Positions 1-17,240 are shown, numbered from the stretch's first letter. The stretch is DNA of 17,788 nt from a virus (IMGVR_UViG_2870464427_000002), one strand, 5' to 3'. Program-made: numbers and translations. Notes: generated by a model not told the origin, from the sequence alone.

Positions 1-765
1 ATGCGCGAACGGGTATCGCAGCAGTTAAAAGAAATAGAACGTCTCTATGGCGTGAAAGTGCTGTACGCCTGCGAATCAGGCAGCCGCGGCTGGGGATTTG
101 CCTCGCCCGATAGCGACTACGATGTACGGTTTTTGTATGTCCATCCGCTGGAATGGTATCTGCGTGTAGAGTCACCGCGCGATGTTATCGAGCTGCCCAT
201 CGACGACGAATTAGATGTTTCCGGTTGGGAGTGGCGTAAGGCGCTGGGATTATTGAAAGGCGCGAATCCGACGCTGATAGAATGGCTGGATTCTCCGGTG
301 GTCTATCAACAAGATGAAGAAACGATAACGGCGCTTAAGGCAATGGTCCCAATGTGGTTTTCTTCGTTGCGTGCACGCTGGCATTACTATTCGATGGCGC
401 AGAAAAACTTCCGCGGCTATTTGCAGGGCGATGAAGTTCGACTGAAAAAATACTTTTACGTGCTGCGTCCGCTGCTGGCCGTACGCTGGGTTGAAGCGGG
501 AAAAGGCGTGCCGCCAATGCGCTTTTCCGAGTTACTGGCGGGAAGCGAGCTTGATGCGCCGTTACGCGTAGAAATAGACGAACTGCTGGAGCGTAAACAG
601 CGAGCGGGGGAGGCGGAATATGGTCCGCGTCGTCCTTTGTTACATGCGTTTATTCGCGCGGAGCTGGCGCGCGGGGAAACTCCACCAGTGTTACCGGATA
701 GCAGAGAAGGGGACGTTAAGGAACTGGATAGTTTACTGTACCAGACGGTAATGCGCCGGGCGTGA
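1..765 (+). CDS. Pol-beta-superfamily nucleotidyltransferase, function unknown
   Basis: 254-aa ORF starting at window position 1 (an upstream extension cannot be excluded). N-terminal motif ESGSRGWGFASPDSDYDV fits the GS-x(9-13)-DxD nucleotidyltransferase signature. Followed by a hairpin terminator. Family-level call from motif only. Confidence 0.6.
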   Translation: MRERVSQQLKEIERLYGVKVLYACESGSRGWGFASPDSDYDVRFLYVHPLEWYLRVESPRDVIELPIDDELDVSGWEWRKALGLLKGANPTLIEWLDSPVVYQQDEETITALKAMVPMWFSSLRARWHYYSMAQKNFRGYLQGDEVRLKKYFYVLRPLLAVRWVEAGKGVPPMRFSELLAGSELDAPLRVEIDELLERKQRAGEAEYGPRRPLLHAFIRAELARGETPPVLPDSREGDVKELDSLLYQTVMRRA

Positions 766-781
766 TGCCCGGCGTTATTTT
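754..781 (+). terminator. Rho-independent terminator between convergent genes
   Basis: 8-bp GC stem (754-761 pairing with 767-774), 5-nt loop, then T-tract TTATTTT (775-781). Overlaps the nucleotidyltransferase stop codon (763-765). Confidence 0.5.
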
Positions 782-1235
782 ACGGCTGATATTGCCAGCT
801 ACTGACTAAAGCGTACAAGTGGTTTGGAGAATAGCGCCAGCTTTCCTTCAGTTGCAGAAATTCAGCACAAAATTCACTGCAAAACAGGCGATCGCGCTGT
901 TCTTTATTACCGATAATAATTCCTAATGCTCCGCGCCAGTCATATTTTTTGCCATCATGTTTACGGAAAAAAGTTTCCACATCCTGAAGGCTGGCCTGGA
1001 GCGGCAGCATATCCCACTTATCCGCTGGCAATGGCATTATTTTTCCGCGTACACCGCGATCGCGCAGTGATGCGGAGTAACAAAGGTATCTCTTTTCACC
1101 ATGCTTAACGGCTAATTCACAGTGGGAATAACTACCGCGTGTGATTTTACGGGTAAGCCAGTCAGCCAGTCGGGCAATACCACGGTGCTCTGTTCGGCCC
1201 TTATAACAAGCGAGCCAGACAGTGGTTTTACTCAT
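780..1235 (-). CDS. hypothetical protein; possible permuted papain-fold (NlpC/P60-superfamily, YiiX/PPPDE-like) hydrolase in the moron position after the tail-fiber chaperone
   Basis: 151-aa ORF whose start overlaps the stop of the upstream tail-fiber assembly gene by 4 bp, suggesting translational coupling. A His (YSHCELAV) precedes a Cys in an FCSEF context, reminiscent of permuted papain-like hydrolases. Functional call is weak. Confidence 0.4.
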   Translation of the reverse strand: MSKTTVWLACYKGRTEHRGIARLADWLTRKITRGSYSHCELAVKHGEKRYLCYSASLRDRGVRGKIMPLPADKWDMLPLQASLQDVETFFRKHDGKKYDWRGALGIIIGNKEQRDRLFCSEFCAEFLQLKESWRYSPNHLYALVSSWQYQP

Positions 1236-1939
1236 GGTTGCCAGCCTGTTGAATAATCGTAGTCGAGCACCGCCTGAATATCGTCCAGTGCTTCCACCGC
1301 CGCGATATGACGCTGGGCGTTTGCGAACAAGCGCATATCGTGATCCATGGTGACCGATTCAAACTGGGCAGCGATTTCGTTGGTTAACTCAATCAGACCA
1401 TTATTTTTAGTTTTCCACATTAACCCTGGCGGAATTTTTTTCTCCGCTCCCATTTTTGTGAGTGAAAGCTGTTGGATACGGCTATTTGTATCACTGTGGA
1501 AGTGATGGTTGTTGATGATGATGTAATCGGTTGTGATGGCATCGCGTTGATTTTTGATTGCAGAGTATTTCGCCTCTTTAGCATCGGTTATAGATGGTTG
1601 CCATTTTTCACCATCCCAACGTTCAAAAGAACCTGTCGGGGAAATGACTGTTACATTTTCAGGTAATTGGCCCAATTCTTGAATAATAAGCTGGCTACCA
1701 TCAACTTTGTTATAAACAGTTTGGCCTCGATGATCTTCAATAAGTCTCCATGTTTCATTCTCCCACACTGGAGTAAAACCAGGAGCCTTTTCGGGAGGTG
1801 AAATTAATGTGCAATAATTTGGCAAGCCTGTATTAGGTGCAATGTATGCATCAGACTCACCGATATATTCTTGGGAGTCTTGTGAAAAATTATATACAGT
1901 TAGTATTTGAGCTTCATCAGAAAAGGTAAAAGTATTCAT
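1232..1939 (-). CDS. tail fiber assembly chaperone (Tfa, P2 gpG / Mu U family)
   Basis: 235 aa. N-terminal half ([20 protein letters not shown]...[12 protein letters not shown]...LG.LPENVT.ISP...W.G..W) matches the conserved Tfa N-domain of enterobacterial prophages. Lies immediately downstream of the tail fiber gene with a 4-bp overlap. Confidence 0.85.
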
Positions 1940-3516
1940 GCTAGCCTCACAATATAGTTGAATGCGATATTTTTGACGGTGTTTTCGGTGCTGCCGGTAT
2001 TATTAATGGTTAGGGAGTGGTTATGGGAACCAAGTGCAATTGAATGCGAATGGGTGCCGAGCGCAACAGTGTGCGAATGGGAACCAATTGTAACACTATG
2101 AACGTGTGATGGAACATTAATTGCCAAAGATGATCCGGTACCAGGGCCATATGATGTCCAGTCGCCTTGGCCCTCTGGTGAAGATGTCCCTGTTCTTACT
2201 GTTGCAGTTGCCGAGCCTGAGCCAGATGAACTTGTTGTTTTATTTCCATGGTTAAATGATGATGCAGTTTTAGTCCCCAAGTCTGTGAGGGGTGTGGTTT
2301 TCGTCCCTAAATCAGTACTCGAAATACTGCCCGTATGGTTATGTGATTTAACTCCATCCAGTTCAGTAGATAATATAGCGCGCCCACTGGATGGTTTTCC
2401 TTTAATTATCCATCCGCGCATATCAGGAATAACACCAGATGGATATGCAATTGCCAGTTTGGGATAGGAGGTTTTATTAAATGTCTGACCTGTCATCAGA
2501 GCGTAGCCTGAAGGTACAGAATCAGATGGCCAGGGAATAGGCATCCCAACAGGACAGCTTTCCGCAGCAATAGCCTTATCCATCGCTGCCTTAACCGCGT
2601 TCGGCGTCGCAGCTTCCGTCGTACTGGTGCTGTTGGTCGCATTATTAAGTTTCACGACCCCTTTTTGTGTCAGCGTACCGTCGGGGATACCTGTTATTTG
2701 CCCCCAGGCATGGGTATGGCTGGACGGCGCCGCAGCAATAGCCTTGTCCATCGCTGCTTTAACCGCACTTGGCGTTGCAGCTTCCGTTGTACTGGTGCTA
2801 TTTGTTGTGTTGTTAAGTTTAACGACTCCTTTCTGCGTCAGTGTACCGTCAGGGATACCAGTAATCTGATTCCAGGCATGAGTATGACTGGTTGCGGCTT
2901 TGCTATTTGCCAGGTCATATGCCGTTTTTACCGCTTTTGGCGTGGCTGCTTTAGTCTCATCATCGCTATTAGTTGCATTACTGAGCTGCGTAAAACCTTT
3001 TTGTGTCAGCGTCGCATCAGGATGATTTCGTGATTGCTGATGTGTTTTCAACGCGTCATCGACATATTCCCTGGTTGCCACAACGACTGAAGGGTCGATC
3101 AAAAGCGTCACCGCGTCTGCATTGGTGACTTCCATGACCGCGCGTATAACGATTTGCTTACTGGCCCCCGCAGGTAATCGTGGCTTATAGGTTTCCGGGA
3201 ATTTACCAATAGCGACCAGCGTGCCGTCGGTATCCAGTAACCCAACTTCGCGTACATACCAGCCTCCGACTTGTTCGGGAATAATCGCTTCTGCGATAAC
3301 CCAGGCCGGATTATCTGGCGCAATTTTTAATGTATTGAGCTGACCACGCCAGACCTCATGGACTACTTTGGTCTGACTTTCTGTCGGTTCGATATATTTA
3401 CCATTACCGTCGCCAACTACCATAGTTTGCAGACGGATCTGTTTTTGCTCGGCCAGTGCTGAGGCAATTTTGGCTTTGCCTGCAGCAGTTAATATTGTAA
3501 AAAATTCACTTGCCAT
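1936..3516 (-). CDS. tail fiber protein (P2 gpH / Mu S-like)
   Basis: Start set at ATG 3514-3516 ([16 protein letters not shown]...), 5 bp after the gpI stop; the longer track ORF overlaps gpI and is rejected. Conserved baseplate-attachment N-domain, three tandem fibre repeats (TLTQKG...ATNS...AATP.AVK.A.D.A), Gly/Ser/Thr-rich C-terminus with repeated S-H-x-H motifs. Confidence 0.85.
2518..3012 (-). repeat. tandem coding repeats, unit about 171 bp (57 aa), three copies, inside the tail fiber gene
   Basis: Near-identical DNA blocks, e.g. 2641-2700 versus 2812-2870. Protein repeats [49 protein letters not shown]. Confidence 0.7.
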
Positions 3517-3518
3517 TA

Positions 3519-4250
3519 TTACTCCGGATATACAGACATAATTTCGGTGCTCCAGTATCCTGTGCCGACCTTCATCGGTTGGGATTGTGTAAGGCGATCG
3601 GGTTGATAAGGTAGTAGTTGGATATATTCCTCCACACAATAACCCGTCGCTAAAAATATTCCTGATGACTGGCTGAGGCTTTCTGCAACAGGAGGCAATA
3701 CTGTAATGACTTCCCCTCCTTGCATGGCGCTGCCAATAACTGGTATTGGGCTTCGATTAATAAGCCAAATAACAATGCTTTCCAGCTTTGAACGAACATT
3801 TTTATATTCATGAATTAATGTGATAAGTGCATTGAATTCATCTTCATTTAATCCTTTTTCCTCTAGTGTAATATTTACCTTAAAAAAATAAGCCCTTCCC
3901 CCATATTCAAACCATTCTGAAATAGTTCCGGGTAAGGAAAGTATTTCCAGCACTCGCCGTACCGCCCAAATTGTTCCTTTATATTTATGCAGTTCAATGG
4001 CTTGTTTAATTAACTCGCGTTTCTCCCGCTCATCGGTGGTAAATAACCAACCTTCCAGCCCCTGAACGTGAAATTGTTCTGCAAGGGCTGGTAATGCCGA
4101 AGCATCAACCAGGTCGACCAGATAAACCATCAACGCCGTCAGATCGAGTTGGGCAAAACGCTCGGCGGCGATGTTTGCCAGAATCGAAAAACGCTCATCG
4201 CTGGCAAGCGGCGGCGGTGGCAGCAATTTATCCATCGCTGACTCCGGCAA
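3519..4250 (-). CDS. tail/baseplate protein, P2 gpI family
   Basis: 243 aa. LLPPPP...ER...LD...VD..DASALP.LA..FHV.G...W......[21 protein letters not shown] matches the gpI family pattern. Start may be the internal Met at 4235; overlaps the gpJ stop. Confidence 0.8.
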
Positions 4251-5343
4251 TCGTGACGTCTATTGCAGTGCATTCCGCCCATTCATGCGCCTGCAAAATA
4301 CGTTTTGTAGGCATATTCAGCGCAACGTCATAGACGCCATCGACCTGTAACACTTTGATTATCTGGTTTGGCACAATGTCCTGCCCCAGATGTTTCTGCC
4401 GCTGTTGCGTCCAGAGGCTAATCGCTTTACGCGCCGCAGCCAGCGTTGTCTCCTGATCGGCGGTGGTAAACAGCATTAGCTGCGCACGGATCTCATACGG
4501 CACTCGAAGAGCGCATTTCGCACTCACTTTGTCGGTCAGCGGTCGTTTTTTCTCCTTGCTGACTTCTTGTTCAATCTGCGCCAGCAACTCCGTGCCGGGT
4601 AGACCATTCAGGGTTAGCGGGTAGATCTCCACGCAGCCTTCTGGCAATCCCTCGTCCGGCCCCAGTACTGCAACGTCAATAATCGACTGGCTAACAGAAA
4701 GCGTATGAAAGCGGTAGGCACCATAGCTGCCCGCATTACTAAAGCTTTCTGGTGCCAGTTGGATACGCTGGCGCAATGCGTCATCGCTCTCTTCACCGCA
4801 GCCGCCCGTTGACGCAGTCAGGTTGGTTACGTTGATGTCATAATGACCAATCCTGTCGACCAGTGCGCTAATTTGTGCAGGCTGCCAGCCGTTACCCTGT
4901 TCACCTGCTGCGAGGCTGGTGGCAGGAACGGCGATATGCAAACTCCTGGCCGGAAGCAGAACATCTTCATCGGTGGCGAACATCACGCTATCAGAGGCAC
5001 TGGCCCGCGTCCCCTGGGGAATCAGGATATTGCCGGGATACGCACTAACGACCGAAAACTGCAACGTCGTTTTTGCAGGCTGCGCAGGCAAACGGTGAAC
5101 TCCCACCAACTCCCCTAAATAATCCAGCATTGGCGCGCGGGAATACGCGACCAGGTTTTGTTTCGCCGCTTCCTGAATGGCGATGCGTACAAGGTTTTCA
5201 CGATAGGCAAACAGGTCGATGAGCAACCGCTCAGCCTGTGCCGGATAGAGTTTTTTACCACTGGCATCTTCGTATTGCGCAATCATCTCACTGGTAATTT
5301 GCGCAGGATCGCGGTCAATAAAATTGGGTTCGGCTATCGCCAT
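4228..5343 (-). CDS. baseplate wedge protein, gpJ family
   Basis: 371 aa. Segments GSYGAYRFHTLSVSQSIIDVAV, LGQDIVPNQIIKVLQVDGVYDV and C-terminal [14 protein letters not shown] align with P2 gpJ as I recall it. Confidence 0.85.
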   Translation of the reverse strand: MAIAEPNFIDRDPAQITSEMIAQYEDASGKKLYPAQAERLLIDLFAYRENLVRIAIQEAAKQNLVAYSRAPMLDYLGELVGVHRLPAQPAKTTLQFSVVSAYPGNILIPQGTRASASDSVMFATDEDVLLPARSLHIAVPATSLAAGEQGNGWQPAQISALVDRIGHYDINVTNLTASTGGCGEESDDALRQRIQLAPESFSNAGSYGAYRFHTLSVSQSIIDVAVLGPDEGLPEGCVEIYPLTLNGLPGTELLAQIEQEVSKEKKRPLTDKVSAKCALRVPYEIRAQLMLFTTADQETTLAAARKAISLWTQQRQKHLGQDIVPNQIIKVLQVDGVYDVALNMPTKRILQAHEWAECTAIDVTIAGVSDG

Positions 5344-5693
5344 AACACCTCCGTTGAGTTGATAACGCCGTCAGCGGCGCGCCATTGCACACGTAACGTC
5401 AGATGTTCGCCGTCGATTACTGGTGTCACCTTCAGCAACCGACAGCGCGGTTCCCACTGGCGGATGGCTTCCACCGACTCCCGTACCACATGCGGGATAG
5501 CCCGCTCGATGGGGTAATCGATGTAGTGCCACAAGTTGCTGCCAAACAGCGGTCTGTGGGGATCACTGCCGCGCGGTGTACGCAGAATGATGTGTATTGC
5601 CTGGTGAATATCATCCAGCCCGCAGACGTATTCTTCAGGCCGCTGCAAGGCCGGTTGCCAGTGCAGCGTTGAGGGGCGTGTTTTTGTGTTCAT
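5334..5693 (-). CDS. baseplate protein, gpW/gp25 family
   Basis: 119 aa. Core I...I.ILRTPRGS and W.Y...P.........V.EAIR.WEPR match the GPW/gp25 family. Confidence 0.8.
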   Translation of the reverse strand: MNTKTRPSTLHWQPALQRPEEYVCGLDDIHQAIHIILRTPRGSDPHRPLFGSNLWHYIDYPIERAIPHVVRESVEAIRQWEPRCRLLKVTPVIDGEHLTLRVQWRAADGVINSTEVLWR

Positions 5694-5766
5694 GAGGGTA
5701 TTTTCGCCCTGAACGGGCTGTGGAGATATTAAAGCGATTTAGAAAACTGATTGATTAAAAAGAGAA

Positions 5767-5786
5767 AACCCGCCATCAGGCGGGTT
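5767..5786 (-). terminator. hairpin with downstream U-tract on the minus strand, between gpV and gpW
   Basis: AACCCGCC-ATCA-GGCGGGTT perfect 8-bp stem. On the minus-strand transcript it is followed by TTCTCTTTTT. Sits in the 98-bp gap after the gpV stop (5792-5794). Confidence 0.4.
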
Positions 5787-5791
5787 AAAAG

Positions 5792-6493
5792 TCAGTGTGA
5801 ATGGTGGTTGGAGTTGCCACCGCTGTCCTGCAATGCGCCGCTGGCCTGAACGTTGCCGATCACGTTGACATTGCCGGTTATCGTGGCTGCGTTACCGATG
5901 CCTCCACTTCCTGCCATCCCGCCAAGCCAGGTGAGTTTTTTCATTACCGTGACGTTGCCAGTAAAGGTGCTCATGGGCGCATCTACCGTCACTGCTGCTG
6001 CTTTAACCTCGACCTTAGTGGCGTCGATGCTGACATCGGTCGCTTTAACATCGACGGTATCGGAAGTCACGGTGACGTGTTGGGCTTTAATCTCAACGTT
6101 GGGCGATGTCAGGCGGGTGCTGTCGATAACCTCAATCACGATTTTCTCGATACCGCCGTTAATCGTCAGCTGGTGCGTGCTGCGGTCATATTCAAACGCT
6201 GCGCCATCAGAAAACTGGACGTAACGTTTGTCGCGCGAGGCTACAGGCGCGGTGTCAACCGTAGAATAAACGGCACCCAGCACCACGCCATCTTCACCGT
6301 TATCGTCCAGCAGAACTTCCACTTGCTCGCCCATATCCGGTAGCCAGTAGTCTTTATTGTCCTGGGAATTGCGTTGAAGTACCGCAAGCCAGTTGCTCTT
6401 CAGATTGTCACACTCTGGTAGAGTGACCCGTACCCGAACACTGGTTTCGTCAATATCGCTGATAATCCCCGTTTGACGGGTTACTCCTTTCAT
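5792..6493 (-). CDS. baseplate central spike, gpV family
   Basis: 233 aa. N-terminal OB-fold-like region typical of gpV spikes, a repetitive beta-rich middle (VTVTSDTVDVKATDVSIDATKVEVKAAAVTVDA) and a His-rich C-terminal tip (GGNSNHHSH). Confidence 0.8.
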   Translation of the reverse strand: MKGVTRQTGIISDIDETSVRVRVTLPECDNLKSNWLAVLQRNSQDNKDYWLPDMGEQVEVLLDDNGEDGVVLGAVYSTVDTAPVASRDKRYVQFSDGAAFEYDRSTHQLTINGGIEKIVIEVIDSTRLTSPNVEIKAQHVTVTSDTVDVKATDVSIDATKVEVKAAAVTVDAPMSTFTGNVTVMKKLTWLGGMAGSGGIGNAATITGNVNVIGNVQASGALQDSGGNSNHHSH

Positions 6494-6502
6494 ATTTCCT
6501 CC

Positions 6503-7543
6503 TTACTGGCTGGTCGCTGGCCCGCGTGACACGTCGATTTCAGTGGTATAGCCGCTGCGCACAAAACTGTGAGTAGATTTATCAATCAGCCACTGACCGG
6601 AAATCACGCCAAAATCGGTCAGTTCAATTTTATTGCCCGCCGTCAGTTCCGGGCAGCCCATCATTGTGAGCGTTCCGGTTTGCTGATATTCGTTGTGGCT
6701 GTCGAGTGCAGCGTTAGCCTTTGCCTGTGCTGCGCCAACGTCCGTCGCCCGACTGTTCAGTTTTAGCGTGTCGGCACTAGTGCCGACTCCACGGACAGAT
6801 GGTTTTTGCTGGCTGTTGTGAGTGTAGATAACCAGTTCTTTTTTCTTACTATTTTGATGCTGTACGGTGGCGTTCTTGTAGATCCGGTTAATGGTGTCTT
6901 TGAAGGTAAAATGAGAAACCTCTTTGCGATCGATCTTTTTCACAGGCGTCAGGCAGCGCAGCGTGGGTAAATGTGAAAAAATCAGCTCTTTTGTCGTCAC
7001 TTTTACGGCATAACCATATTCACTGGCCAGACGTTTGAGAAATCCGACATCGGTTTCACCATACTGCGTTACCCGGTCGATGGTGAGCGACTCGATTTTG
7101 CCCACCAGTTTCAGACCGTGCGTTTGGGCAATACGGCTGGCGATCGCCGAAAGCGTCGTTTCTTCAAAGCCCTGGCTGTTACGGGTGCGCAGCGCCTGAT
7201 TGACGGAAGTGGCGATGCCATCAATATTTACCGTGGAAGGTGGCGCTGAAATATCAATTTTATCAATAATATACTGGCCACAATCGAGCAGCTTTTCCCC
7301 CTGATAACCTATATGCAGCGCCAGCGTATCGCCTTTGCCGGGATACCACTCTTTTATCCAGCGTCCATCTGTGTCATCCAGTGTAATTGCGATGGTATCC
7401 GACTCGTTTTTGATGCTGTCGTGGTAACTGATGCTGGTGACATAGGGTGTGATGTCATAAGTGATATCTTTATGCCCATACCAGAGGGTAAAAATGGGCG
7501 TGAGTGTGGCAAAGACGCCACCAGTTACGCTCATCTCAGCCAT
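6503..7543 (-). CDS. baseplate hub protein, P2 gpD (late control D) family
   Basis: 346 aa. Size, position between gpX and gpV, and overall composition fit the gpD/gp27-like hub family; call rests on synteny and general resemblance. Confidence 0.75.
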   Translation of the reverse strand: MAEMSVTGGVFATLTPIFTLWYGHKDITYDITPYVTSISYHDSIKNESDTIAITLDDTDGRWIKEWYPGKGDTLALHIGYQGEKLLDCGQYIIDKIDISAPPSTVNIDGIATSVNQALRTRNSQGFEETTLSAIASRIAQTHGLKLVGKIESLTIDRVTQYGETDVGFLKRLASEYGYAVKVTTKELIFSHLPTLRCLTPVKKIDRKEVSHFTFKDTINRIYKNATVQHQNSKKKELVIYTHNSQQKPSVRGVGTSADTLKLNSRATDVGAAQAKANAALDSHNEYQQTGTLTMMGCPELTAGNKIELTDFGVISGQWLIDKSTHSFVRSGYTTEIDVSRGPATSQ

Positions 7544-7740
7544 GGTGGGATCTCCGATAAGGTTTTATTAACGGAAATGACCGGAATAATGAGCTGAATA
7601 CCGGAAGGCAGTACCGGGTAAATGGCTACATGTGGATTGGCGGCGATTATGCGTTCATAAGCCAGCGCATCACCGTAGTAATGCCATGCCAGGTTATCCC
7701 AGCGTTCGCCATCGGTGGTGATATGTTCAAGGTATCGCAT
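7531..7740 (-). CDS. tail protein X (P2 gpX-like, LysM-like fold)
   Basis: 69 aa. W..L...YYG.......I..ANP..A....LP.G....IP pattern as in P2 gpX. Overlaps the gpD start. Confidence 0.7.
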   Translation of the reverse strand: MRYLEHITTDGERWDNLAWHYYGDALAYERIIAANPHVAIYPVLPSGIQLIIPVISVNKTLSEIPPWLR

Positions 7741-8693
7741 TACCAGCTCCTGGTAATGGTTACGGCAGCAAGCTGGCTCACTGCGGGAGTGGTTTGTTGT
7801 ACCGTTGTACGTGCCTGCTCAACCAACGACGTGGCTTTATCGAACGTCGCTTCGGCGATGTCGCTGGTAATGTCGTCGAAAAGCGCCTGAGCATGGTCAA
7901 CCAGCGTACTGGCGTCATTGGCGCAGTCCCGGATACCTGGCATGTTACCCAGTAAAGCTTTAATCTGCGCCGACAACGCTTTTGGTAGGCCTGCCAGCGT
8001 TTGCAGATCCATTGGCTGTTTAAACAGGGTTTCGATGGCGTCGATTGTCTTTTTCAATGACGTAATTATCTTTTCACACTTTTCTTTTAACGCTTTGGCC
8101 TCTTTAATCATTGCTTTCACTTTTGCCACCGTTTTTTTAATATCTTCAATGGATTGTGTCAGTTCATCCAGCATCTCTTTGGCCTTACGCATACCTTCTT
8201 CAATGGCGTTTAATATCTGATCAAACCAGGACTCCACCTTGTCGGGAAAATCGCTCGCCTTTTCCTCGATGTTGGGCTCCTGGGTGGTAATCGCCGGAGG
8301 TAAAAGTGGATTTTTAGGATCGCCGGTGTACTCCTGGAGCGACATCGTTCCGTTTTGGGCAATCACATTGCCCCAGGGATCGGTGTGCTGGTGGGTGGCG
8401 GTTAGCTCCGTAATCACAAACCAGCCGCGATAATCGCCATTGCCAAATACCAGTGCCATCGCCTTGTGAGCAAGCATGGCTTCACGCAGTCGGTTCAGCT
8501 CTGTTGTGGGCTGGCAAAACTGGCTGTGCAGGGAAAATTCCAGCGCCAGCATATCCAGCTTATCGCCAATAAACTGCACGCCGGGTTTGCCTTCTATACG
8601 GGCATGTGTGGCGTAATCCACGCCCATTGTGCTTTTAAAGCCGTCCCAGAATGTGACAACCTTAAATTCAATCTCTCCTAAAACGGCATACAT
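7740..8693 (-). CDS. gpU-like tail protein with a long C-terminal coiled-coil extension
   Basis: 317 aa. The first ~120 aa (MYAVLGEIEFKV...GKPGVQFIG...L.LEF.L.........L..L...AM....MALVFGNGDYRGWFVITEL) resemble P2 gpU. The remaining ~190 aa are Lys/Glu/Ala-rich heptad-like sequence. Start overlaps the tape measure stop by 1 nt. Confidence 0.65.
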   Translation of the reverse strand: MYAVLGEIEFKVVTFWDGFKSTMGVDYATHARIEGKPGVQFIGDKLDMLALEFSLHSQFCQPTTELNRLREAMLAHKAMALVFGNGDYRGWFVITELTATHQHTDPWGNVIAQNGTMSLQEYTGDPKNPLLPPAITTQEPNIEEKASDFPDKVESWFDQILNAIEEGMRKAKEMLDELTQSIEDIKKTVAKVKAMIKEAKALKEKCEKIITSLKKTIDAIETLFKQPMDLQTLAGLPKALSAQIKALLGNMPGIRDCANDASTLVDHAQALFDDITSDIAEATFDKATSLVEQARTTVQQTTPAVSQLAAVTITRSW

Positions 8694-11068
8694 TAGGCAT
8701 ACCCCCGGCGCTGCTGCTGCGCCATTACATCGTTAATCATTCTTTCCAGTTCGCGTTTACTCATCGTCAACACGTTCTGAATCTCTTTAGTGGTGTTTTG
8801 TCCGTTACCCTGCACGGTAATTTGTGGCGAAAAATTCACCTGAACTTTTCCTGAGGAACGGGAAGGTAGCGTCGCCGCTTTGGTTACGGATTTACCAGGT
8901 AAAGAGGCAGATACGGGTTTGGCGGCTGTATTTTTTGCCGCTGGCGCCGATGACGGCGTAGCCGTTTTGCCGGATGGCGCGAGTTGTTTGCCCACCGGCG
9001 GCGTTAAAATCGCACCGGCAACGCCTGGAACAACGGTCGCGGGGGAGACGGATGCGGTATTAGTCGTGCTTGTAATAGCTGTAGCCGATCCTTCTGTACT
9101 AATACCCATCGTGGTTTTTAGCCAGTCTGGGATGGCGTTTTTTACCTGATCAATAATGCCTTTCAGAGCGGGGAAGGCATTCATTATGCCGTCAACCAGA
9201 CTGCCCAGAAGATTGCTGCCGAACTCGCTAAAACTTGCAGGCATCTCGACACCAAACCAATTCATCACACTGGAAAAGGCGCTATAGAACAACTCCAGCG
9301 GTGACCAGTCGAGAATCAACCGACAAATTCCTGCAATGCCGCCGTCAAAGGCCGTGGTGATACGTTGCCAGATGGTCGAAAAGAACCTGGAGATAGGCTC
9401 CCAGTTGCGATAAATCAGATAAGCAGCGCCCGCAATCGCAGTGATGACCAGACCAATGGGATTCATCAGTAGCACCCGGCCTAGTGAGAGAACGGTCCGA
9501 CCAACCAGTTTCAATGTTCCAATCAGGCCACGACCAAGCAGTTGCGTTAGCCATTTTGCGCCGCCACCCAATGACTTAACCGCTGATAGCATCTTACTTG
9601 CCCCGCCTGTGAGCGCCAGACTTGCCTTGACTTTCAGGAAGATATCGACCAGACGAATAAACGGCGAGGTGATGAGGTTCGCGCCCAGCTTTAAAACATT
9701 CAGCGCACCGTTAAACAGCCAAATCGCCCCGACGATTTTCGCGATGTTTTGCACCAGTGTCGGGTGCTCACGTAGCCAGGCGCTGAACTGACGAATAACC
9801 GGCGTAAGGCTTTGTGCCAGCTCGCCAATCAGCGGCATTAATTGCAAGCCAATGCTGAGCCATAAATCATTTAACGCCAGCTGTAACGCTTTAGTCTGTT
9901 CAATGGGCGAGGCCATTTGCGCAGAAAAGTCGGCATCAATCAGATTCTTGCTGGTGGCTTGCATGGCAGAGGCTTTTAACTGGCGATATTCCTCCATATT
10001 CGCCAGCATAGGGGCCAGGAATTCCACTGTTTGCGCATCGCCGAACATTTCCCCCAGATTAAACTGCGTCACCATCGATTGCAGCGCATTGCTGCGGGCA
10101 GATAAATCTTCGATCTGCATGGTGCGTTTGAAGGTGTCGAGGATCGCCGGATTCATCTTCTCAAGCTGCATTTGCACGATATGAGTCATGGCTTCGCTAA
10201 CACCCATACCGTTTTGCTGATGCTCAAGCAGAGAGCCTTGCAGATCAACGCCCTGGCTGACGAACCAGTAATCGGTTTTTTTCGAAAAGGTGGTTTGCAG
10301 AAAGTGGTCGAAATTCTCCGCCGCCGCACTGGCGCTGGCCCCGTTTTTCATGGCGATCTGCATGGTGGCGGTCAGTTCAGCCATACCTTCCAGACCCTGA
10401 GCGCCGGTTTTACCTGCAAATTTCTCTATCCACTGCGTTTGTTCAGCAATGGCAGGCCCACCGCTTTTGCTAATGCCGTACATCATGTTTTGCGCGGCGT
10501 GGAAATTTTCCGGGGCAATATTCAGTCGATCATGGGTTGCGAGCGCGGCATTCGCCCATGTTTCAGCACTTTCGCGCGTGGCGGTGGCAGCTTTGGCGAT
10601 CTCCGGCATATAACGGTTGAGATCCTGTATCGACGACAAATTGCCTTCGATCAGCGTTTGGGCTGCGTTCTGTAAGGTGGTCTGCTGCTGGTTAAAATCC
10701 ATGCTCCAGTCGCGCAGATTAAGGCTGAGCGTCTCGCGGGTTGTAGCATTCATCCCACCTTTGGTCGCCATATTGACCATGTTGTCCTGAAACTCATACG
10801 GCAACTTCCAGTCGGGGGCTTCAACATTGAATACTTTGCTAAATTGCCCGGCAAATGTTTGGGTTTTCTCCATCAGATTAGCGCGGCTGCGGCTATTTTC
10901 CTCCAGGCGGAGAGCGGAATCGGCAAGCTGCTGCGTTAGTTTGATAACTGTCGCCTGCTGAGTAGAGAGAGTTAACAATGTTCTGGCGTTGAGTGAGCCG
11001 TAACGGGCTATTGCCTGCGTCAACGTCTCATTACGCGCCTGAAGCTGGGTAATAATATCGTTGGCCAA
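8693..11068 (-). CDS. tail tape measure protein
   Basis: 791 aa. Alpha-helical N-terminal region, central hydrophobic Gly-rich segments (LIGTLKLVGRTVLSLGRVLLMNPIGLVITAIAGAAYLIY), Ser/Thr/Pro-rich C-terminal region. Lies between the chaperone and baseplate genes. The track start is a TTG codon, so the exact start is uncertain. Confidence 0.85.
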   Translation of the reverse strand: MANDIITQLQARNETLTQAIARYGSLNARTLLTLSTQQATVIKLTQQLADSALRLEENSRSRANLMEKTQTFAGQFSKVFNVEAPDWKLPYEFQDNMVNMATKGGMNATTRETLSLNLRDWSMDFNQQQTTLQNAAQTLIEGNLSSIQDLNRYMPEIAKAATATRESAETWANAALATHDRLNIAPENFHAAQNMMYGISKSGGPAIAEQTQWIEKFAGKTGAQGLEGMAELTATMQIAMKNGASASAAAENFDHFLQTTFSKKTDYWFVSQGVDLQGSLLEHQQNGMGVSEAMTHIVQMQLEKMNPAILDTFKRTMQIEDLSARSNALQSMVTQFNLGEMFGDAQTVEFLAPMLANMEEYRQLKASAMQATSKNLIDADFSAQMASPIEQTKALQLALNDLWLSIGLQLMPLIGELAQSLTPVIRQFSAWLREHPTLVQNIAKIVGAIWLFNGALNVLKLGANLITSPFIRLVDIFLKVKASLALTGGASKMLSAVKSLGGGAKWLTQLLGRGLIGTLKLVGRTVLSLGRVLLMNPIGLVITAIAGAAYLIYRNWEPISRFFSTIWQRITTAFDGGIAGICRLILDWSPLELFYSAFSSVMNWFGVEMPASFSEFGSNLLGSLVDGIMNAFPALKGIIDQVKNAIPDWLKTTMGISTEGSATAITSTTNTASVSPATVVPGVAGAILTPPVGKQLAPSGKTATPSSAPAAKNTAAKPVSASLPGKSVTKAATLPSRSSGKVQVNFSPQITVQGNGQNTTKEIQNVLTMSKRELERMINDVMAQQQRRGYA

Positions 11069-11257
11069 AATTGTTTCTCTTTAAATATTGATAATGGCCC
11101 GCTGGTTATTTTTCTAAAAAAAGGGGCAGGGAAGAAATAAACCTGACGGGCTTGGGAAACTCGCAGACATCAGGTCTGCGAGTCATATTCGATTTTTATT
11201 TGGGCGCTGGCTTCATCCAGCCAGTTGCTAAAGTCATCGACGGTAAGGGCGTCTATC

Positions 11258-11575
11258 TCACTGGGTGGAAAGCGAAACCATCTCGCCAGTAACGCCATCG
11301 CTTGCCATAACAGTGGCGGATTCTGTAGCCACGCTAAGCATGGATTGAAATCGTTTCTGCAATGCCTGGTAATCCAGCAAATCCATTTCAGCTAAATCTT
11401 CTGGCACCAGTCCGGTCATTGCCGCCATTAGCGGTTCATCCCACTCTTCAGGTTTTTCGCTGATCCGGCGCGCGTTGCGCATATCTTTTACTTTCAGGCG
11501 ACGTAATTGCAGAGTGTTAATTACGTCTCCCGCCGCTGAAGTAAACGGGAACTGTAAGATATAATGTTCTTTCAT
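11258..11575 (-). CDS. tail assembly chaperone, P2 gpE family
   Basis: 105 aa, acidic, in the conserved position between tube and tape measure. An alternative frame stays open past its stop (see findings). Confidence 0.75.
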   Translation of the reverse strand: MKEHYILQFPFTSAAGDVINTLQLRRLKVKDMRNARRISEKPEEWDEPLMAAMTGLVPEDLAEMDLLDYQALQKRFQSMLSVATESATVMASDGVTGEMVSLSTQ

Positions 11576-11625
11576 TTTGTGTCCTTATTTATTTTGCAAA
11601 GTTCGGGGCCGTAGCCCCGAATAAC

Positions 11626-12150
11626 TTAGCCACCGATGTTATTGCGATAGGTACTTAATTGATCCACACCATTAACCCGGAAAATATTGGCCATATAATC
11701 AAGTTCAAGCAGCGTTTCACCATCAACTACTTGTTTAATATAAGTGCAACCAAAGGCGCTGCTGAATTCCGGGTTTTCATTCTGTTTAAATGTGCCCAGT
11801 GGATTCTTTTTAAACATCACGGTTAAATGTGTCACTAGCGCTAATTGATTCGCTTTCCCCTGGGAGTTATAGCAATCAATACTGGAGCGGCACTGTAATG
11901 CAACCGCCTGCCACGGGTTTGCCGTTTTACGCATTACGTCCTGATAGAAGGAGTTCCATTTAATTTCGCCCTCCAGTTTATCGAAACCCGCCGGGAGTTC
12001 GATTTTACCCACCATGCCCAGTGCTTTATGCTCCTGCATAATTAAACTGACATCCGGCAATTTAATTTCGGTTGCACGACCTAAAAGGTTATTACCATCG
12101 AGATAAATATTGGCGTTGGTAATACGGTTAATTTGAATTTTTCCAGCCAT
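11626..12150 (-). CDS. tail tube protein (P2 FII family)
   Basis: 174 aa. C-terminal ...VNGVDQLSTYRNNIGG closely matches the P2 FII C-terminus (VNGVD.L...R.NIG). Start overlaps the sheath stop by 1 nt. Confidence 0.85.
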   Translation of the reverse strand: MAGKIQINRITNANIYLDGNNLLGRATEIKLPDVSLIMQEHKALGMVGKIELPAGFDKLEGEIKWNSFYQDVMRKTANPWQAVALQCRSSIDCYNSQGKANQLALVTHLTVMFKKNPLGTFKQNENPEFSSAFGCTYIKQVVDGETLLELDYMANIFRVNGVDQLSTYRNNIGG

Positions 12151-13573
12151 TAGCTATTGCTCTCCAGAGAGACTAAATATTCAGAAGTAATTTCAGTTTC
12201 AAACGTCAGACGTTCCAGCGGCGGCGGCGGGGTGAATTTATAGCTCAGCAATAAATGCCCAGCGCTGAGTTCAGTCGGTGAATTTCGCGCCGGATCGTAC
12301 CAGCATTCAAAGCCAAGCAGTGCGCCGTCGGCAATCAGCTTACGGCCCCAGGTATTTACCGATTCGGTCAGGGCATCAATCAGCGCCTGATTAATCGGCA
12401 TATCAATATACTGCTGACTGAAATAACGGATTGACTCATTAATTACATCGCCTGTCCGGCGGACGTTTTCAAAGTTACGCATATGGGTCACGGTAGGCCA
12501 CGCTGCAGTGCGGTTGCCCCACAAGCGCAGACCAGAGCCGTAACTATTGAAAATAGTGGTAATGCCGTTTTCGTTTAGCTGATTCACTTCGCTTTGTGGA
12601 TCATCAATCATTGCGGAAAGCGAACGTTCAATACCGGTAATACCCTGAATTTCTTGGTTTGAGTTGCTCCACCAGAAACCTTTTTCGAGGTCTACTTTGG
12701 CACGTAGCCCGGCAGCGCGCGAAGAGAGCGGTTCGAGAACTTCCTGGTTAGTGATGCCATCGTAAACTTTGACGTGTGGGTAACATAAACGCGCACGATC
12801 AGAGCTGGTGTTGAAGTTGATAGCCCCTTGCGAACCGCGTCCTGCCAATACCTGCTGGAATGTCGTCCCAATCGGGGCATCAATGTAGGTAATCGCACCA
12901 AGTTTTTCCGCTTGTGCAATCAGCTCTGTAGTTACTGATTTTTGCGTACAGAACACGGGAGCAAGCAGGATTTTGGCGTAGAAACCATACAGGTTATAGG
13001 TGTCCTGTAGCAGTTTCATCCCCGTGCGGTCGCCTGCGGTATTTACGGTACCGATAATATCGGCTGCGGTGACCTTTGTAGGGTCGCACCAGGAATAATA
13101 GGCACAAACTTTCGCACCAGGAGGAATGTCGGCTCCTTTACGGGTAATTATGCCTGTTTGTTCATCTACGCTAAATGCTGCGGTGTTAAAGGTTGATGAA
13201 TTTGATGAAGAGGGCTTTAGTACCACGTTACGCACATTGCGGTGAGCGAGCTTCGCCTGGTTGTTAGCATCAAAAGTGATACTCTCATTGCTGATGTTGG
13301 AGCCATGTTTTGCCGGATCCAGCACGTTAATCACCACCACCGTACCGGCACCGTGGTCATAAATTGCCTTCAGTGCCTGTGGGATCGTAAAGTTAGCCTG
13401 AGTCGAGCCAAACTGCGCAGCATCGCTTTCAGAAAGGCATAATGTTGGTTTATTTACCGGACCGCAGGGGCTGTACCGATTAAAGCGATGACGGCGGATT
13501 TTACCGCTTTAACCGGACGCGGGCCGGTTTCAATTTCAATAGTTTCTACACCGTGCAGATAATTAGCTGCCAT
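12150..13573 (-). pseudogene. contractile tail sheath (P2 FI / Mu L family) interrupted by an apparent 1-nt frameshift near 13457-13468
   Basis: From ATG 13573 one frame encodes MAANYLHGVETIEIETGPRPVKAVKSAVIALIGTAPAVR then stops (TAA 13454-13456). The adjacent frame is open from 13508 and continues PVNKPTLCLSESDAAQFG...VVVINV... through the 396-aa track ORF, whose C-terminus (LRLWGNRTAAWPT...YKFTPPPPLERLTFE) is sheath-like. One extra G in mRNA GCGGTCCGG would join the two frames. Confidence 0.7.
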
Positions 13574-13760
13574 GTACAATTTCCTCTACGTTATTTTGTT
13601 CTTCCTGAGTGATGACAGGAGTCAGATGATTGCGGGCAATCATGGTCATGACCCACTCGTTGTCTTCTGGCAGATCAATTTCACTGTTCGGCCACAATAA
13701 GATTTCTTGTCCATCGGCAAGGGTGACGCCGCTTGCTGGGCCGTTGTAGATGTATTTCAT
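13563..13760 (-). CDS. small hypothetical protein upstream of sheath
   Basis: 65-aa ORF overlapping both neighbours. Its position recalls the small gene preceding the sheath gene in Mu-like tail modules. No motif recognised. Confidence 0.45.
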   Translation of the reverse strand: MKYIYNGPASGVTLADGQEILLWPNSEIDLPEDNEWVMTMIARNHLTPVITQEEQNNVEEIVHGS

Positions 13761-14212
13761 TCAGTTTCCTCGTAGTTAACTTCCGTAAGCAGGGGAAGAT
13801 CCGTGCTTTCCTGTTCAGCGATAAATAGCGAGCTGGTCGCCATTTCCAGGATGTAGCGGCAGAAACCGCCGCTCTCACCCGTATTAATTTCTTTTTCAAG
13901 CCAAAGAAGACGATCGCAATCAGGAAGCTGAAGGCCACCCAATGCGCTGCGTATGTGATCAAGTGCGTTTAATGCATCACAATTTTTGCCAACAATAACG
14001 GTGGCGGTTAAGCGGAGTATTTGCTGTTGCACGATGGCATTACTGCTTTCGGGCGTAGCAAAGACAGAACCGCTATAATTAATAATCACTGCAACTCGTT
14101 GTGTCTGTGGAATATATTTCTGGGCATCCTTAGATGAAATAAATATATCCATTTCGGAGTTGTGTTCACGTAATCTGGTCACAACAGAATTCATTACAGA
14201 TAAAATTTCCAT
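13757..14212 (-). CDS. hypothetical tail-associated protein (possible tail completion protein)
   Basis: 151-aa ORF with an AAGG ribosome-binding site upstream of ATG 14210-14212; first gene after the terminator. Function inferred from position only. Confidence 0.5.
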   Translation of the reverse strand: MEILSVMNSVVTRLREHNSEMDIFISSKDAQKYIPQTQRVAVIINYSGSVFATPESSNAIVQQQILRLTATVIVGKNCDALNALDHIRSALGGLQLPDCDRLLWLEKEINTGESGGFCRYILEMATSSLFIAEQESTDLPLLTEVNYEETE

Positions 14213-14317
14213 ATAGGCTGTACCTTAATTACCGCTCACTTCGTTATCGTTGAAATGTATTCTGAAGCAGCGAAGGTGAAGAATCTTTTAATGTGATTTA
14301 GAGAAAAAATTGAATGG

Positions 14318-14343
14318 TTAAAAAAATCCCCACCCTTACATAA
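14318..14343. terminator. strong bidirectional intrinsic terminator between the lysis cassette and the tail genes
   Basis: Perfect 11-bp stem TCCCCACCCTT / AAGGGTGGGGA with loop ACAT, flanked by A7 (14311-14317) and T5 (14344-14348). On the minus strand the hairpin is followed by a U7 tract. Confidence 0.6.
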
Positions 14344-14356
14344 GGGTGGGGATTTT

Positions 14357-14671
14357 TCAATAACTGCCACGTTGTAACAGCTCGATTTTGCTATATAAGG
14401 CATCCAGCTTCGCTTCTAATACTGCTTGCCCACGAAGATAATCTTCTCTGCGGACATAATGCAGCGGAAGCTCGGCACGAAATTCGAGAAATTCTCTTTC
14501 CAGTTTCGACCAACTTGTTTCTGATTCCCGGCGCGCGTTTTCCAGAGATTCAAAACGCTCATTAAGTCGTTTTTCAATTTGTGCTAACAGCAGTTTTCCG
14601 GCAGCAAACATTAATCCAACGAAGGAAAGCATAAGGGAGATCACTTCCCAAAAATCGATACTGAGTTTCAT
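14357..14671 (-). CDS. membrane-anchored coiled-coil protein, possible lysis accessory (spanin-like)
   Basis: 104 aa. N-terminal transmembrane helix (VISLMLSFVGLMFAAGKLLL) followed by a charged helical region. Last gene of the lysis block. Confidence 0.45.
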   Translation of the reverse strand: MKLSIDFWEVISLMLSFVGLMFAAGKLLLAQIEKRLNERFESLENARRESETSWSKLEREFLEFRAELPLHYVRREDYLRGQAVLEAKLDALYSKIELLQRGSY

Positions 14672-14683
14672 CGGCCCCTCTGA

Positions 14684-15289
14684 TTAATGAAGACAGCTTG
14701 CCTGTCCCCAGAGTAAATAGCGGGCGGCATGTTGATAGAGGATCATCTTTGGATAGCGACGATTTTCTCGCCAGTTCGTGGCGCTGCGCCCGGCGTTGAC
14801 TTGCTCAACATGACCAAACCAGCTAGTGGCATCTAACCCTTTGGATGCAGCCAGTTTTTTATCCCGGTTAACCCACCCCTGACCGCCGTTATAGGCGCTT
14901 AGGGTAAACGCCATACGCTGACAATCATTTTTCGCAGAGATGTTTTTCCACAAATGCTGGTCATATTGCACCAGCGCGCGAATCGCCCAGGTTGGGTTAT
15001 ACGGTTTGTTTTCACGCAATTGTGGATACAACTGGCTTATCCATGTCGCTGTAGCAGGCATAAATTGCGCCATACCTTGTGCGCCAACGGGGGAACGTAC
15101 CATTGGCTGCCAGGCGGACTCCTGGTGTAATTGCCCGGCAAAGTCGGCCACTGGGGCATTCAGCCCCCAGACTTCTCGAGCTGTACGAATTAGTTCGTTT
15201 CGCCATGCCAGAGAGGCTCTCGGCGGTTCAGAGGCGTTGAGTGGGAAAAGAACGAAAATAATCATAGACGCGATATATTTCAGCCACAT
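14684..15289 (-). CDS. lytic transglycosylase (SLT/GH23 domain) with N-terminal signal sequence; putative endolysin
   Basis: Start set at ATG 15287-15289 (MWLKYIASMIIFVLFPLNA...), 2 bp after the holin-like stop; the track's longer N-terminal extension is rejected. SLT motifs present: HQESAWQP, GAQGMAQFMPATA, AYNGG. Confidence 0.8.
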   Translation of the reverse strand: MWLKYIASMIIFVLFPLNASEPPRASLAWRNELIRTAREVWGLNAPVADFAGQLHQESAWQPMVRSPVGAQGMAQFMPATATWISQLYPQLRENKPYNPTWAIRALVQYDQHLWKNISAKNDCQRMAFTLSAYNGGQGWVNRDKKLAASKGLDATSWFGHVEQVNAGRSATNWRENRRYPKMILYQHAARYLLWGQASCLH

Positions 15290-15291
15290 CA

Positions 15292-15579
15292 CTATAGCCC
15301 TAACGCGACGGAAAGGCAGACGGCAGCAACGATGATAGCCCGGCGAATCATTGCCGCCGCGCAGCAACGCGGTTCCTTCCAGGGGCAAAAAGAGTCAGGC
15401 CGTGCCCAGGGGAACAAACTGCGATCGAGCCAGTATCCCAGCACCGCGGAAAGCGAAACCAGGCTTAGTTTATAAATGACGACCGGGATTTGTGCTGAAG
15501 AGGTCCAGCCGATCACGACAAACAGCGCGACGGAAGCGACCAGCCAACCGGAAAGCCGGGGAAGAGTGACTTTTTTCAT
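15292..15579 (-). CDS. small membrane protein, putative holin
   Basis: 95 aa with two to three predicted transmembrane segments. AGGAG ribosome-binding site 8 nt upstream of ATG 15577-15579. Immediately precedes the transglycosylase. Confidence 0.5.
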   Translation of the reverse strand: MKKVTLPRLSGWLVASVALFVVIGWTSSAQIPVVIYKLSLVSLSAVLGYWLDRSLFPWARPDSFCPWKEPRCCAAAMIRRAIIVAAVCLSVALGL

Positions 15580-15875
15580 ACGGTATCTCCTGATAAGTGA
15601 GCGTTTAGTGTCGCCAGAACCCGCCAGTGAAGAATGAAAAAAGCTTTAATAAATAAGTTTAAAAAATAGATTCTCTATAAATGAACATGCCCGCTAATAA
15701 ATCCACTCAGCAATTAAAGAGCAAAAGGTGACCTCGCGAATAAGCGCGTCATTATGCAGGGAAAAGATGATGGTGAATCGTAGGAATAGTCAGTAGTTAT
15801 TTGATTTTTAAAGTTTGTTTAAGAAAGTCAGCGACTGTGAGGGAAACGATCTTTTTACACTACAAGTAAAAATAA

Positions 15876-15889
15876 TACTGTATGTGTAT
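15876..15889. promoter_or_regulatory. left half of a LexA (SOS) box split by the insertion (TACTGT + duplicated spacer)
   Basis: Removing the insertion and one duplication copy gives TACTGTATGTGTATACAGTA, a perfect 20-bp palindrome with the CTGT-N8-ACAG architecture (18/20 to TACTGTATATATATACAGTA). Confidence 0.45.
15882..15889. repeat. target-site duplication, left copy (ATGTGTAT)
   Basis: Identical 8-mer directly abutting the left inverted repeat; second copy at 17206-17213. 8 bp is the duplication size expected for ISL3-family elements. Confidence 0.75.
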
Positions 15890-17205: not shown

Positions 17206-17213
17206 ATGTGTAT
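17206..17213. repeat. target-site duplication, right copy (ATGTGTAT)
   Basis: Identical 8-mer directly abutting the right inverted repeat. Confidence 0.75.
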
Positions 17214-17219
17214 ACAGTA
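17206..17219. promoter_or_regulatory. right half of the split LexA (SOS) box (duplicated spacer + ACAGTA)
   Basis: See left half. This half lies 21 bp upstream of a TTGACA hexamer. Confidence 0.45.
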
Positions 17220-17240
17220 TCGTGTAAAATGATACACCTG

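Follow-up and report, generated by a model that had tools for sequence, protein, structure and literature searches.

Tailocins shape competition between close relatives and are under development as precision antibacterials, and to our knowledge no native R-type tailocin of Escherichia coli or Salmonella has been well characterized. The R-type pyocins of Pseudomonas aeruginosa have their genes in P2 order. Carotovoricin is a Mu-type tailocin regulated through SOS/LexA (PMC13566846), described in the literature as a LexA-controlled, defective Mu-type prophage of ~20 kb that is conserved across Pectobacterium. Salmonella genomics papers describe an element known as "BcepMu," either as an ancestral, unusually invariant prophage or as a gtr-bearing phage remnant, and do not call it a tailocin. 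Here we analyze the viral record IMGVR_UViG_2870464427_000002, a stretch of 17,788 nucleotides (the window) that is 100% identical to positions 422794 to 440581 of the E. coli CREC-544 chromosome and carries a headless contractile-tail cassette next to lysC. On balance, we judge it probable that this cassette is the late (lysis and tail) region of a BcepMu-type phage whose genes for head, replication, transposition, and immunity were lost long ago, kept beside lysC as a carotovoricin-like R-type tailocin locus. The kind of element (Mu-type tailocin, carotovoricin) and the Salmonella ortholog, as a prophage remnant, are already known; what we add is the lysC-linked cassette as a member of that kind.

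The cassette genes all lie on the minus strand, running from 15579 to 780, and the calls are backed by Pfam and PHROG profile searches. An earlier note, made from the sequence alone, had named a series of lysis and tail genes and proposed profile searches of their products. Every gene that it named is present, with each family supported by Pfam or PHROG, and its list missed one further gene, at 780 to 1235. The cassette has its own lysis set, consisting of a holin (15292 to 15579; Pfam Holin_2-3, 2e-27; phrog_1528), a lytic transglycosylase (SLT) endolysin with a hydrophobic N terminus (14684 to 15289; Pfam SLT, 9e-15; phrog_669, endolysin), and a 104-amino-acid membrane/coiled-coil protein (14357 to 14671; phrog_462), the third lysis gene, which is i-spanin-like in sequence. 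These are followed by a Mu Gp37-family tail-completion protein (13757 to 14212; Pfam Gp37, 6e-33) and a conserved 65-amino-acid protein in the position of Mu gp38 that is present in all relatives (13563 to 13760; phrog_895, 4e-35). The contractile-tail set is complete, with a Pfam or PHROG match for each of sheath, tube, tape measure, chaperone, hub, spike, wedge, fiber, and fiber chaperone. The sheath gene (12150 to 13573; Pfam) is frameshifted in the window and encodes 474 amino acids in E. coli MRY15-117, where it is intact. Then come the tail tube (11626 to 12150; Pfam Phage_tube, 4e-56), the tail assembly chaperone (11258 to 11575; Pfam TAC_7), a tape measure protein of 791 amino acids (8693 to 11068; Pfam PhageMin_Tail), a P2 GpU-like baseplate/tube-initiator protein with a coiled-coil C terminus (7740 to 8693; Pfam Phage_P2_GpU, 6e-34; phrog_788), tail protein X (7531 to 7740; Pfam, 2e-23), the gpD baseplate hub (6503 to 7543; Pfam Phage_GPD), the gpV spike (5792 to 6493; Pfam Phage_base_V), the gpW/gp25 baseplate wedge (5334 to 5693; Pfam), baseplate protein J (4228 to 5343; Pfam, 3e-63), tail protein I (3519 to 4235; Pfam, 6e-33), a tail fiber of 526 amino acids (1936 to 3516; Pfam Phage_tail_fib, fiber repeats, and Collar), and the tail fiber assembly protein Tfa (1232 to 1939; Caudo_TAP and DUF4376). 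A frameshift extension is a usual feature of tail chaperones, and the cassette retains one, an E'-like overlapping open reading frame (ORF) in the +1 frame (11391 to 11170; phrog_8286, 2e-20). The last gene (780 to 1235) is the ortholog of Salmonella STM4198 and encodes 151 amino acids that match phrog_1128 ("moron") and no Pfam family. The Mor-type activator that the note had placed nearby is likewise present, as a divergent plus-strand gene for a Mor/C-family late transcription activator of 115 amino acids (17441 to 17788; Pfam Mor, 7e-38; phrog_532, late activator).

A scan with the sheath protein, using one genome per species, yielded 80 loci, onto which we mapped all cassette proteins. 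The same gene order without a head module occurs in 10 Pectobacterium species and in Samsonia. From genus, architecture, and literature, we infer that the Pectobacterium loci are the published carotovoricin clusters. Like the cassette, they run from holin, SLT, and membrane protein through gp37 and a small ORF to the sheath and on to the fiber, and they contain no head genes. In tblastn searches with every cassette protein as the query against 10 headless loci of Pectobacterium, the matches are collinear at 27 to 76% identity, with sheath and tube at 76% and W at 67%. The two systems also have in common a promoter-like motif before gp37 and variable fiber loci, the turnover of the Pectobacterium fiber locus being taken from the literature, and the SOS link of carotovoricin probably extends to the cassette. 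They differ in chromosomal site, which is tolC_2/ybiB in Pectobacterium and yjbD/lysC for the cassette. Further, the Pectobacterium loci contain an additional ORF, missing from the cassette, between membrane protein and gp37, and neither a Mor gene nor a strict LexA box was found in the 2.5 kb upstream of their holin, whereas the cassette is without a fiber invertase.

A neighbor-joining tree built from five proteins (sheath, tube, J, W, and D) separates the carotovoricin group from a lysC-locus group comprising E. coli, Salmonella, and Superficieibacter, to which Lelliottia is sister, and places headless Brenneria loci among complete phages, suggesting that the head has probably been lost several times in the wider phage family. 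Because of these separate groups and the probably repeated head loss, we call the E. coli cassette a homologue of carotovoricin and not a demonstrated ortholog. In several Chromobacterium species (loci L069 to L073, L077, and L080 in our numbering), a divergent Mor homologue lies directly upstream of gp37 and the sheath, with no holin, SLT, or membrane protein detected between Mor and gp37; these loci may represent a further headless derivative of this phage family, trimmed in a different way.

The distance between gp37 and the SLT and membrane protein genes splits the 80 loci into two architectures. In the complete type, found in Pantoea, Photorhabdus, Xenorhabdus, Buttiauxella, Burkholderia, and some Pectobacterium and Brenneria, the SLT and membrane protein genes lie ~8.5 kb upstream of gp37. 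The interval in Pantoea stewartii encodes Mu Gp27, the large terminase, the Mu portal, Mu F, a virion morphogenesis protein (G), a capsid-like protein, a cement protein, and Mu Gp36. In the headless type, holin, SLT, and membrane protein directly abut gp37. The gap between membrane protein and gp37 in the window is 144 bp, versus a head module of ~8.3 kb in L028 and other loci, and at this junction lies a strong intrinsic terminator (14320 to 14357, minus strand) that is conserved across genera. The closest complete phages are those of the BcepMu group, with sheath identities of 71 to 74%. BcepMu and its relatives (phiE255, Klebsiella KP12, and Escherichia PhiKM), as well as the Pectobacterium prophage ECA41, share the Mu-type lysis-head-tail order and the SLT endolysin, but they form infective virions and have terminase, portal, capsid, transposase, and immunity genes, all of which are missing from the cassette. 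Since 144 bp stand where relatives carry head genes, the cassette corresponds to a Mu-type phage late region minus its head block. The position of that block between the lysis genes and gp37 in the complete relatives also bears out the earlier suggestion of a Mu-like rather than P2-like gene order. The note had further set a tailocin against a head-deleted prophage; these are not alternatives here, as the cassette is a head-deleted BcepMu-type late region kept under purifying selection.

We checked the flanks in the RefSeq annotation, 15 kb to either side of the window. From left to right, the order is metH, yjbB, pepE, the sorbose operon, rluF, yjbD, a slipin gene, a nucleotidyltransferase (NTase) gene at window positions 1 to 765, the cassette, the insertion sequence (IS) ISKox3, Mor, and lysC, with pgi, yjbEFGH, psiE, and the mal genes to the right of lysC. 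The Mor stop codon is 55 bp from the 3' end of lysC, with nothing in between. Capsid, portal, terminase, and replication genes are absent in and next to the cassette, which has core genes on both sides, and transposase A/B, repressor, integrase, and early region are absent within 15 kb of it; the sole transposase at the locus belongs to the IS. Extending the sequence to the right in search of head genes, as the note had proposed, reached lysC 55 bp past Mor and gave none. Its option that head genes might lie beyond the right edge is excluded by lysC on that side and by yjbD and rluF on the left, and head genes outside the window are ruled out by this annotated core-gene context.

There is no tRNA gene in the window, and the cassette boundaries were instead set by comparing empty and alternative states of the locus. 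The interval from yjbD to lysC is a variable hotspot with three states: empty, as in K-12-like strains; a slipin (SPFH) gene, an RlaP-family NTase gene, and a zeta-toxin gene (L086); or slipin, NTase, cassette, and Mor (window 1 to 765 and upstream; positions 2841 to 4765 of L002, the MRY15-117 locus). Slipin adjoins yjbD in 1,628 of 5,426 E. coli genomes, compared with ~197 that have the cassette, and neither slipin nor the NTase has a PADLOC match. Given these counts and the alternative zeta-toxin neighbor, we rejected slipin and the RlaP-family NTase as parts of the element.

The R-type pyocins and the E. coli "ST131 tailocin" resemble the cassette in being headless contractile tails with lysis genes, and all three have the sheath, tube, U, X, D, V, W, J, and I families in common. 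The ST131 element has P2 order (V-W-J-I-fiber before sheath-tube-E-T-U-X-D), whereas the cassette has Mu-type order, and control in the pyocins and the ST131 element is of the PrtN/PrtR or P2 type, whereas the activator of the cassette is Mor. The P2 order of the ST131 element led us to reject the idea that the cassette is that published "tailocin." Searched for domains of the Afp/PVC type, none of the cassette ORFs has the AAA+ ATPase, the tail terminator/ruler, or toxin cargo; the cassette does have a phage-type lysis set, which is not part of the Afp/PVC systems, and P2/Mu-type fibers.

The Salmonella "BcepMu" remnant STM4198-STM4219 is the ortholog of the cassette, with the same yjbD and lysC flanks, gene order, Mor, and LexA box, at 77.5% nucleotide and 60 to 97% protein identity. 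Indeed, the cassette lies between yjbD and lysC in Salmonella Infantis, in a record that cross-references LT2 STM4198-STM4219. The Salmonella element differs in having gtrABC (STM4204-4206) and a small ORF between V and W, as well as other cargo between yjbD and the cassette. Two Superficieibacter species and Phytobacter massiliensis likewise have pgi, lysC, Mor, the control region, and the holin in this arrangement, and at least four genera share the lysC junction. Between E. coli and Salmonella, 20 of 20 genes are intact, with ratios of nonsynonymous to synonymous substitution (dN/dS) of 0.04 to 0.24 and synonymous divergence (dS) of 0.6 to 1.9. The flanking rluF, yjbD, lysC, and pgi genes have matching dS values of 0.7 to 1.5. 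Similarly, among three E. coli alleles that are 2 to 4% apart, dN/dS is mostly below 0.3. Vertical descent from a common ancestor under continuous purifying selection would give this pattern of matched dS and low dN/dS. Neutral decay is disfavored because 20 reading frames have stayed open over a divergence that matches that of the core genes alongside, and on these comparisons the cassette appears to be a long-maintained, domesticated element and not one in fresh decay.

The fiber gene STM4200 serves as a Typhimurium PCR marker, and literature searches for functional work using the LT2 locus tags turned up nothing beyond its use as a PCR marker and mentions in screens. The gtrABC O-antigen glucosylation operon (L003 19131 to 22284) occupies the place of the V-W gap of the window (5694 to 5791), which holds a terminator and a promoter-like motif.

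In E. coli, some 197 to 200 of 5,426 complete genomes (~3.6%) carry the cassette, always as a single chromosomal copy with 95 to 100% identity. The carriers include the extraintestinal lineages IAI39, CE10, and an isolate labelled 648. E. coli alleles vary in the distal part of the fiber, the N-terminal part of Tfa, and the C terminus of protein I; in one pair of alleles, the fiber shows 52% identity, against 99% for the neighboring J protein. The window's own fiber is shared by 78 of 196 carriers (at least 80% of its length). Such mosaicism of the fiber region, while the rest of the cassette is 95 to 100% identical, is a signature of changing target specificity. The fiber of MRY15-117 (L002 6269 to 7516) is annotated by RefSeq as two partial pseudogenes, although its DNA is identical to window positions 1936 to 3516, where the copy is annotated as intact at 526 amino acids; the pseudogene call is an annotation inconsistency and not a lesion. 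Separately, the last gene of the cassette (780 to 1235) is invariant across fiber haplotypes, with a dN/dS of 0.04 relative to STM4198.

In strains without the IS, Mor and the holin are separated by a 537-bp spacer with a perfect LexA box, TACTGTATGTGTATACAGTA (L002 19877 to 19896). This box is kept in five genera, Salmonella, Superficieibacter, and Phytobacter among them, amid an otherwise diverged spacer, and no strict LexA box was found upstream of the holin in relatives from Pectobacterium, Brenneria, Lonsdalea, or Chromobacterium. Next to it lies an invariant sequence, GTGTAAAATG, which offers promoter elements in both directions: toward Mor, a -10 element TAAAAT with the LexA box over the -35 region, and toward the holin, on the other strand, a -35 element TTTACA with a -10 element TACAGT. 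A scan for consensus sigma-70 sites found one in the control region, and elsewhere fewer than in shuffled-sequence controls, leaving the promoter direction undecided. In published S. Typhimurium transcriptome sequencing (RNA-seq) data, nalidixic acid raises STM14_5073, a 348-bp plus-strand gene, 4.1-fold. Judged by its size, its strand, and its place in the tag order, this gene is the probable Salmonella Mor ortholog, and from its induction we favor LexA control of Mor. None of the other STM14_505x-507x genes is among those differentially expressed in that data set.

Three motifs in the cassette resemble phage late promoters. Upstream of the holin, the candidate Mor-dependent late promoter P_lys is an AT-rich block of 22 bp, TTTTTAAACTTATTTATTAAAG (15644 to 15665, minus strand), that is invariant in five genera and for which 0 matches are expected by chance. 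A related motif before gp37, P_tail (14285 to 14309, minus strand; TTTTTTCTCTAAATCACATTAAAAG), has the form TTTTCTAAA-N4-(A/C)TTTAA(A/T)A and is kept in Salmonella, Superficieibacter, Phytobacter, Pectobacterium, Samsonia, and Brenneria. The third, TTTTCTAAATCGCTTTAATATC, lies before W (5725 to 5746, minus strand), next to an intrinsic terminator (5767 to 5786, minus strand), and is kept even in complete phages of Photorhabdus, Pantoea, and Burkholderia. The gp37 and W copies each sit just after a terminator. By analogy with the several C-dependent late promoters of Mu, the three motifs would be phage late promoters and likely targets of a Mor/C-type activator.

The copy in the window differs from that of MRY15-117 in two respects only, a 1-bp deletion in the sheath gene and ISKox3. 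ISKox3 is an ISL3-family element of 1,316 bp (15890 to 17205, plus strand; transposase, 15957 to 17177) and makes up the 1.3 kb between the holin and Mor. Its insertion point is the center of the LexA box, with the CTGT half on one side and the ACAG half on the other, and the 8-bp spacer ATGTGTAT is duplicated. The left half, TACTGT plus the duplicated ATGTGTAT, is at 15876 to 15889, and the right half, ATGTGTAT plus ACAGTA followed by GTGTAAAATG, is at 17206 to 17231. Whichever way the promoter points, SOS control is lost, because a LexA dimer cannot bind a half site and the control region is split by 1.3 kb. With the sheath gene also reading as frameshifted, the system in the window is probably not operating as designed, and this copy is probably disabled.

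For intact alleles, we propose the following course of events. DNA damage would lead to cleavage of LexA, freeing the promoter at the LexA box, so that Mor would be made and would turn on the three late promoters before the holin, gp37, and W. Sheath, tube, tape measure, baseplate, and fibers would then build headless tails, and the holin, SLT endolysin, and membrane protein would lyse the producer. Finally, the variable fiber would bind the surface of related strains, probably at the lipopolysaccharide, and contraction would kill them. We can offer only tentatively the full form of this account, in which the locus is a working R-type tailocin, domesticated before the split of Escherichia, Salmonella, Superficieibacter, and Phytobacter, run by a minimal circuit from LexA through Mor to three late promoters, retained almost throughout Salmonella, and lost in the majority of E. 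coli; we put it at somewhat under an even chance. If true, two of the most studied bacteria carry an ancient, uncharacterized bacteriocin weapon. The locus is in any case a ready tailocin candidate, conserved, with swappable fibers, and present in extraintestinal E. coli and in Salmonella generally. It would also be a natural example of a Mu-type late region reduced to a weapon, with the head block gone and the late activator and promoters kept under direct SOS control. For CREC-544 the message is the opposite, with the operator destroyed and the sheath reading as broken.

Several observations weigh against a working tailocin. Some concern individual copies. The sheath gene of the window is frameshifted by the shortening of a run of five G residues to four (13466 to 13470), the sole substitution-level difference from MRY15-117 across 16.5 kb. 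The frameshift may reflect a homopolymer error in sequencing or assembly, or it may have arisen very recently; the deletion seems to be missing from EC0585, a strain with the same IS, and the sheath is intact in MRY15-117 and L085. The tape measure gene of CE10 (L084 13466 to 15841) is annotated with an internal stop, while the related IAI39 copy is intact. An IS splits the operator of 11 of the 197 carriers, always at one position, and the other 186 have no IS there. Others concern the system as a whole. Sequence alone leaves it ambiguous which way the LexA-controlled promoter points, bulk induction of the late genes by nalidixic acid was not seen in the S. Typhimurium data, and an embedded o-spanin was sought in the cassette and not found. 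About 96% of E. coli genomes are without the cassette, so most lineages do without it, and the literature that we searched holds no report of particles, lysis, or killing by the E. coli or Salmonella locus.

Purifying selection shows that there is a function but not which one, and the cassette could have been kept for something other than killing: as an SOS lysis module that releases goods, as a supplier of tails to satellites that have only heads or to phages that lack tails, or as a platform for cargo of the gtrABC type. The lysis genes do form a unit of their own closed by a terminator, and the Salmonella cluster has the O-antigen glucosylation operon inside it. We nevertheless regard a nonkilling role as unlikely, since selection is seen on every structural gene, including those for fiber assembly, and not on the lysis genes alone. 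Further, fiber mosaicism signals changing target specificity, the homologue that we infer, carotovoricin, is a bacteriocin, and there is no AAA+ ATPase or toxin cargo of the Afp/PVC type. The O-antigen is a common tailocin receptor, and it is pure speculation that the gtr operon inside the cassette could serve self-protection.

The Salmonella literature treats the locus as merely a "BcepMu" prophage or remnant, and it might accordingly be an inert BcepMu-like remnant that is not usefully expressed and survives only pending deletion. The lesions in individual copies, the absence from ~96% of E. coli genomes, and the late genes missing from the nalidixic acid differential-expression list would all fit such a remnant. 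An inert remnant is hard to reconcile, however, with 20 intact genes at dN/dS of 0.04 to 0.24 and dS as large as that of the flanking core genes, with the same position and architecture in at least four genera, or with a LexA box and regulatory motifs kept within diverged spacers, and we consider it improbable. That the cassette belongs to a complete inducible prophage with heads elsewhere or beyond the window can be dismissed, as the 15 kb on either side is core metabolic (metH, pepE, sor, rluF, and yjbD; lysC, pgi, yjbEFGH, and mal), 144 bp stand where relatives hold the head block, and there is no transposase A/B, repressor, or integrase. A retained BcepMu-type late region of the carotovoricin kind remains the reading that we prefer.

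The 11 carriers with a broken LexA box show four different duplicated octamers and two ISL3 elements, ISKox3 and ISEc53, and the structural genes are intact in the IS-bearing copies of IAI39, isolate 648, and AF14. We surveyed ISL3 elements of the ISKox3 type and their surroundings in the window (15876 to 17219) and in L084, L087, L088, L089, L090, and L091 to L119. In IMG/VR, 28 of 29 left ends of ISKox3 are preceded by CTGT and 8 nucleotides, in at least 19 sequence contexts; of the 17 copies that are complete, the 8-bp duplication is perfect in 15, and CTGT-N8-ACAG is rebuilt in 14. Phage SaltyDalty has the same arrangement of IS and LexA box. ISL3 elements of the ISKox3 type therefore home to LexA operators in general, a behavior for which we found no published description in the literature searched. 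Such homing means that the insertion reflects the target choice of the IS and not selection on the cassette, and it is independent evidence that the site is a genuine SOS-type box. We considered the insertion as a sign of selection against the cassette and rejected this, given the intact structural genes and the general targeting of LexA boxes. Any IS family with this target preference would rewire SOS-controlled genes at its insertion sites.

At the same LexA box, ISEc53 (L084 20356 to 22784; also L087 and L089) carries a passenger gene of the ClbS/DfsB family, the family of colibactin self-resistance. An IS directed at SOS operators thus carries a gene for protection against DNA damage.

Within the cassette, Gp37 (13757 to 14212) evolves much faster than its neighbors. 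It is 37 to 60% identical between genera in which sheath, tube, and W are 80 to 97% identical, and its dN/dS, 0.2 to 0.5, is the highest in the cassette.

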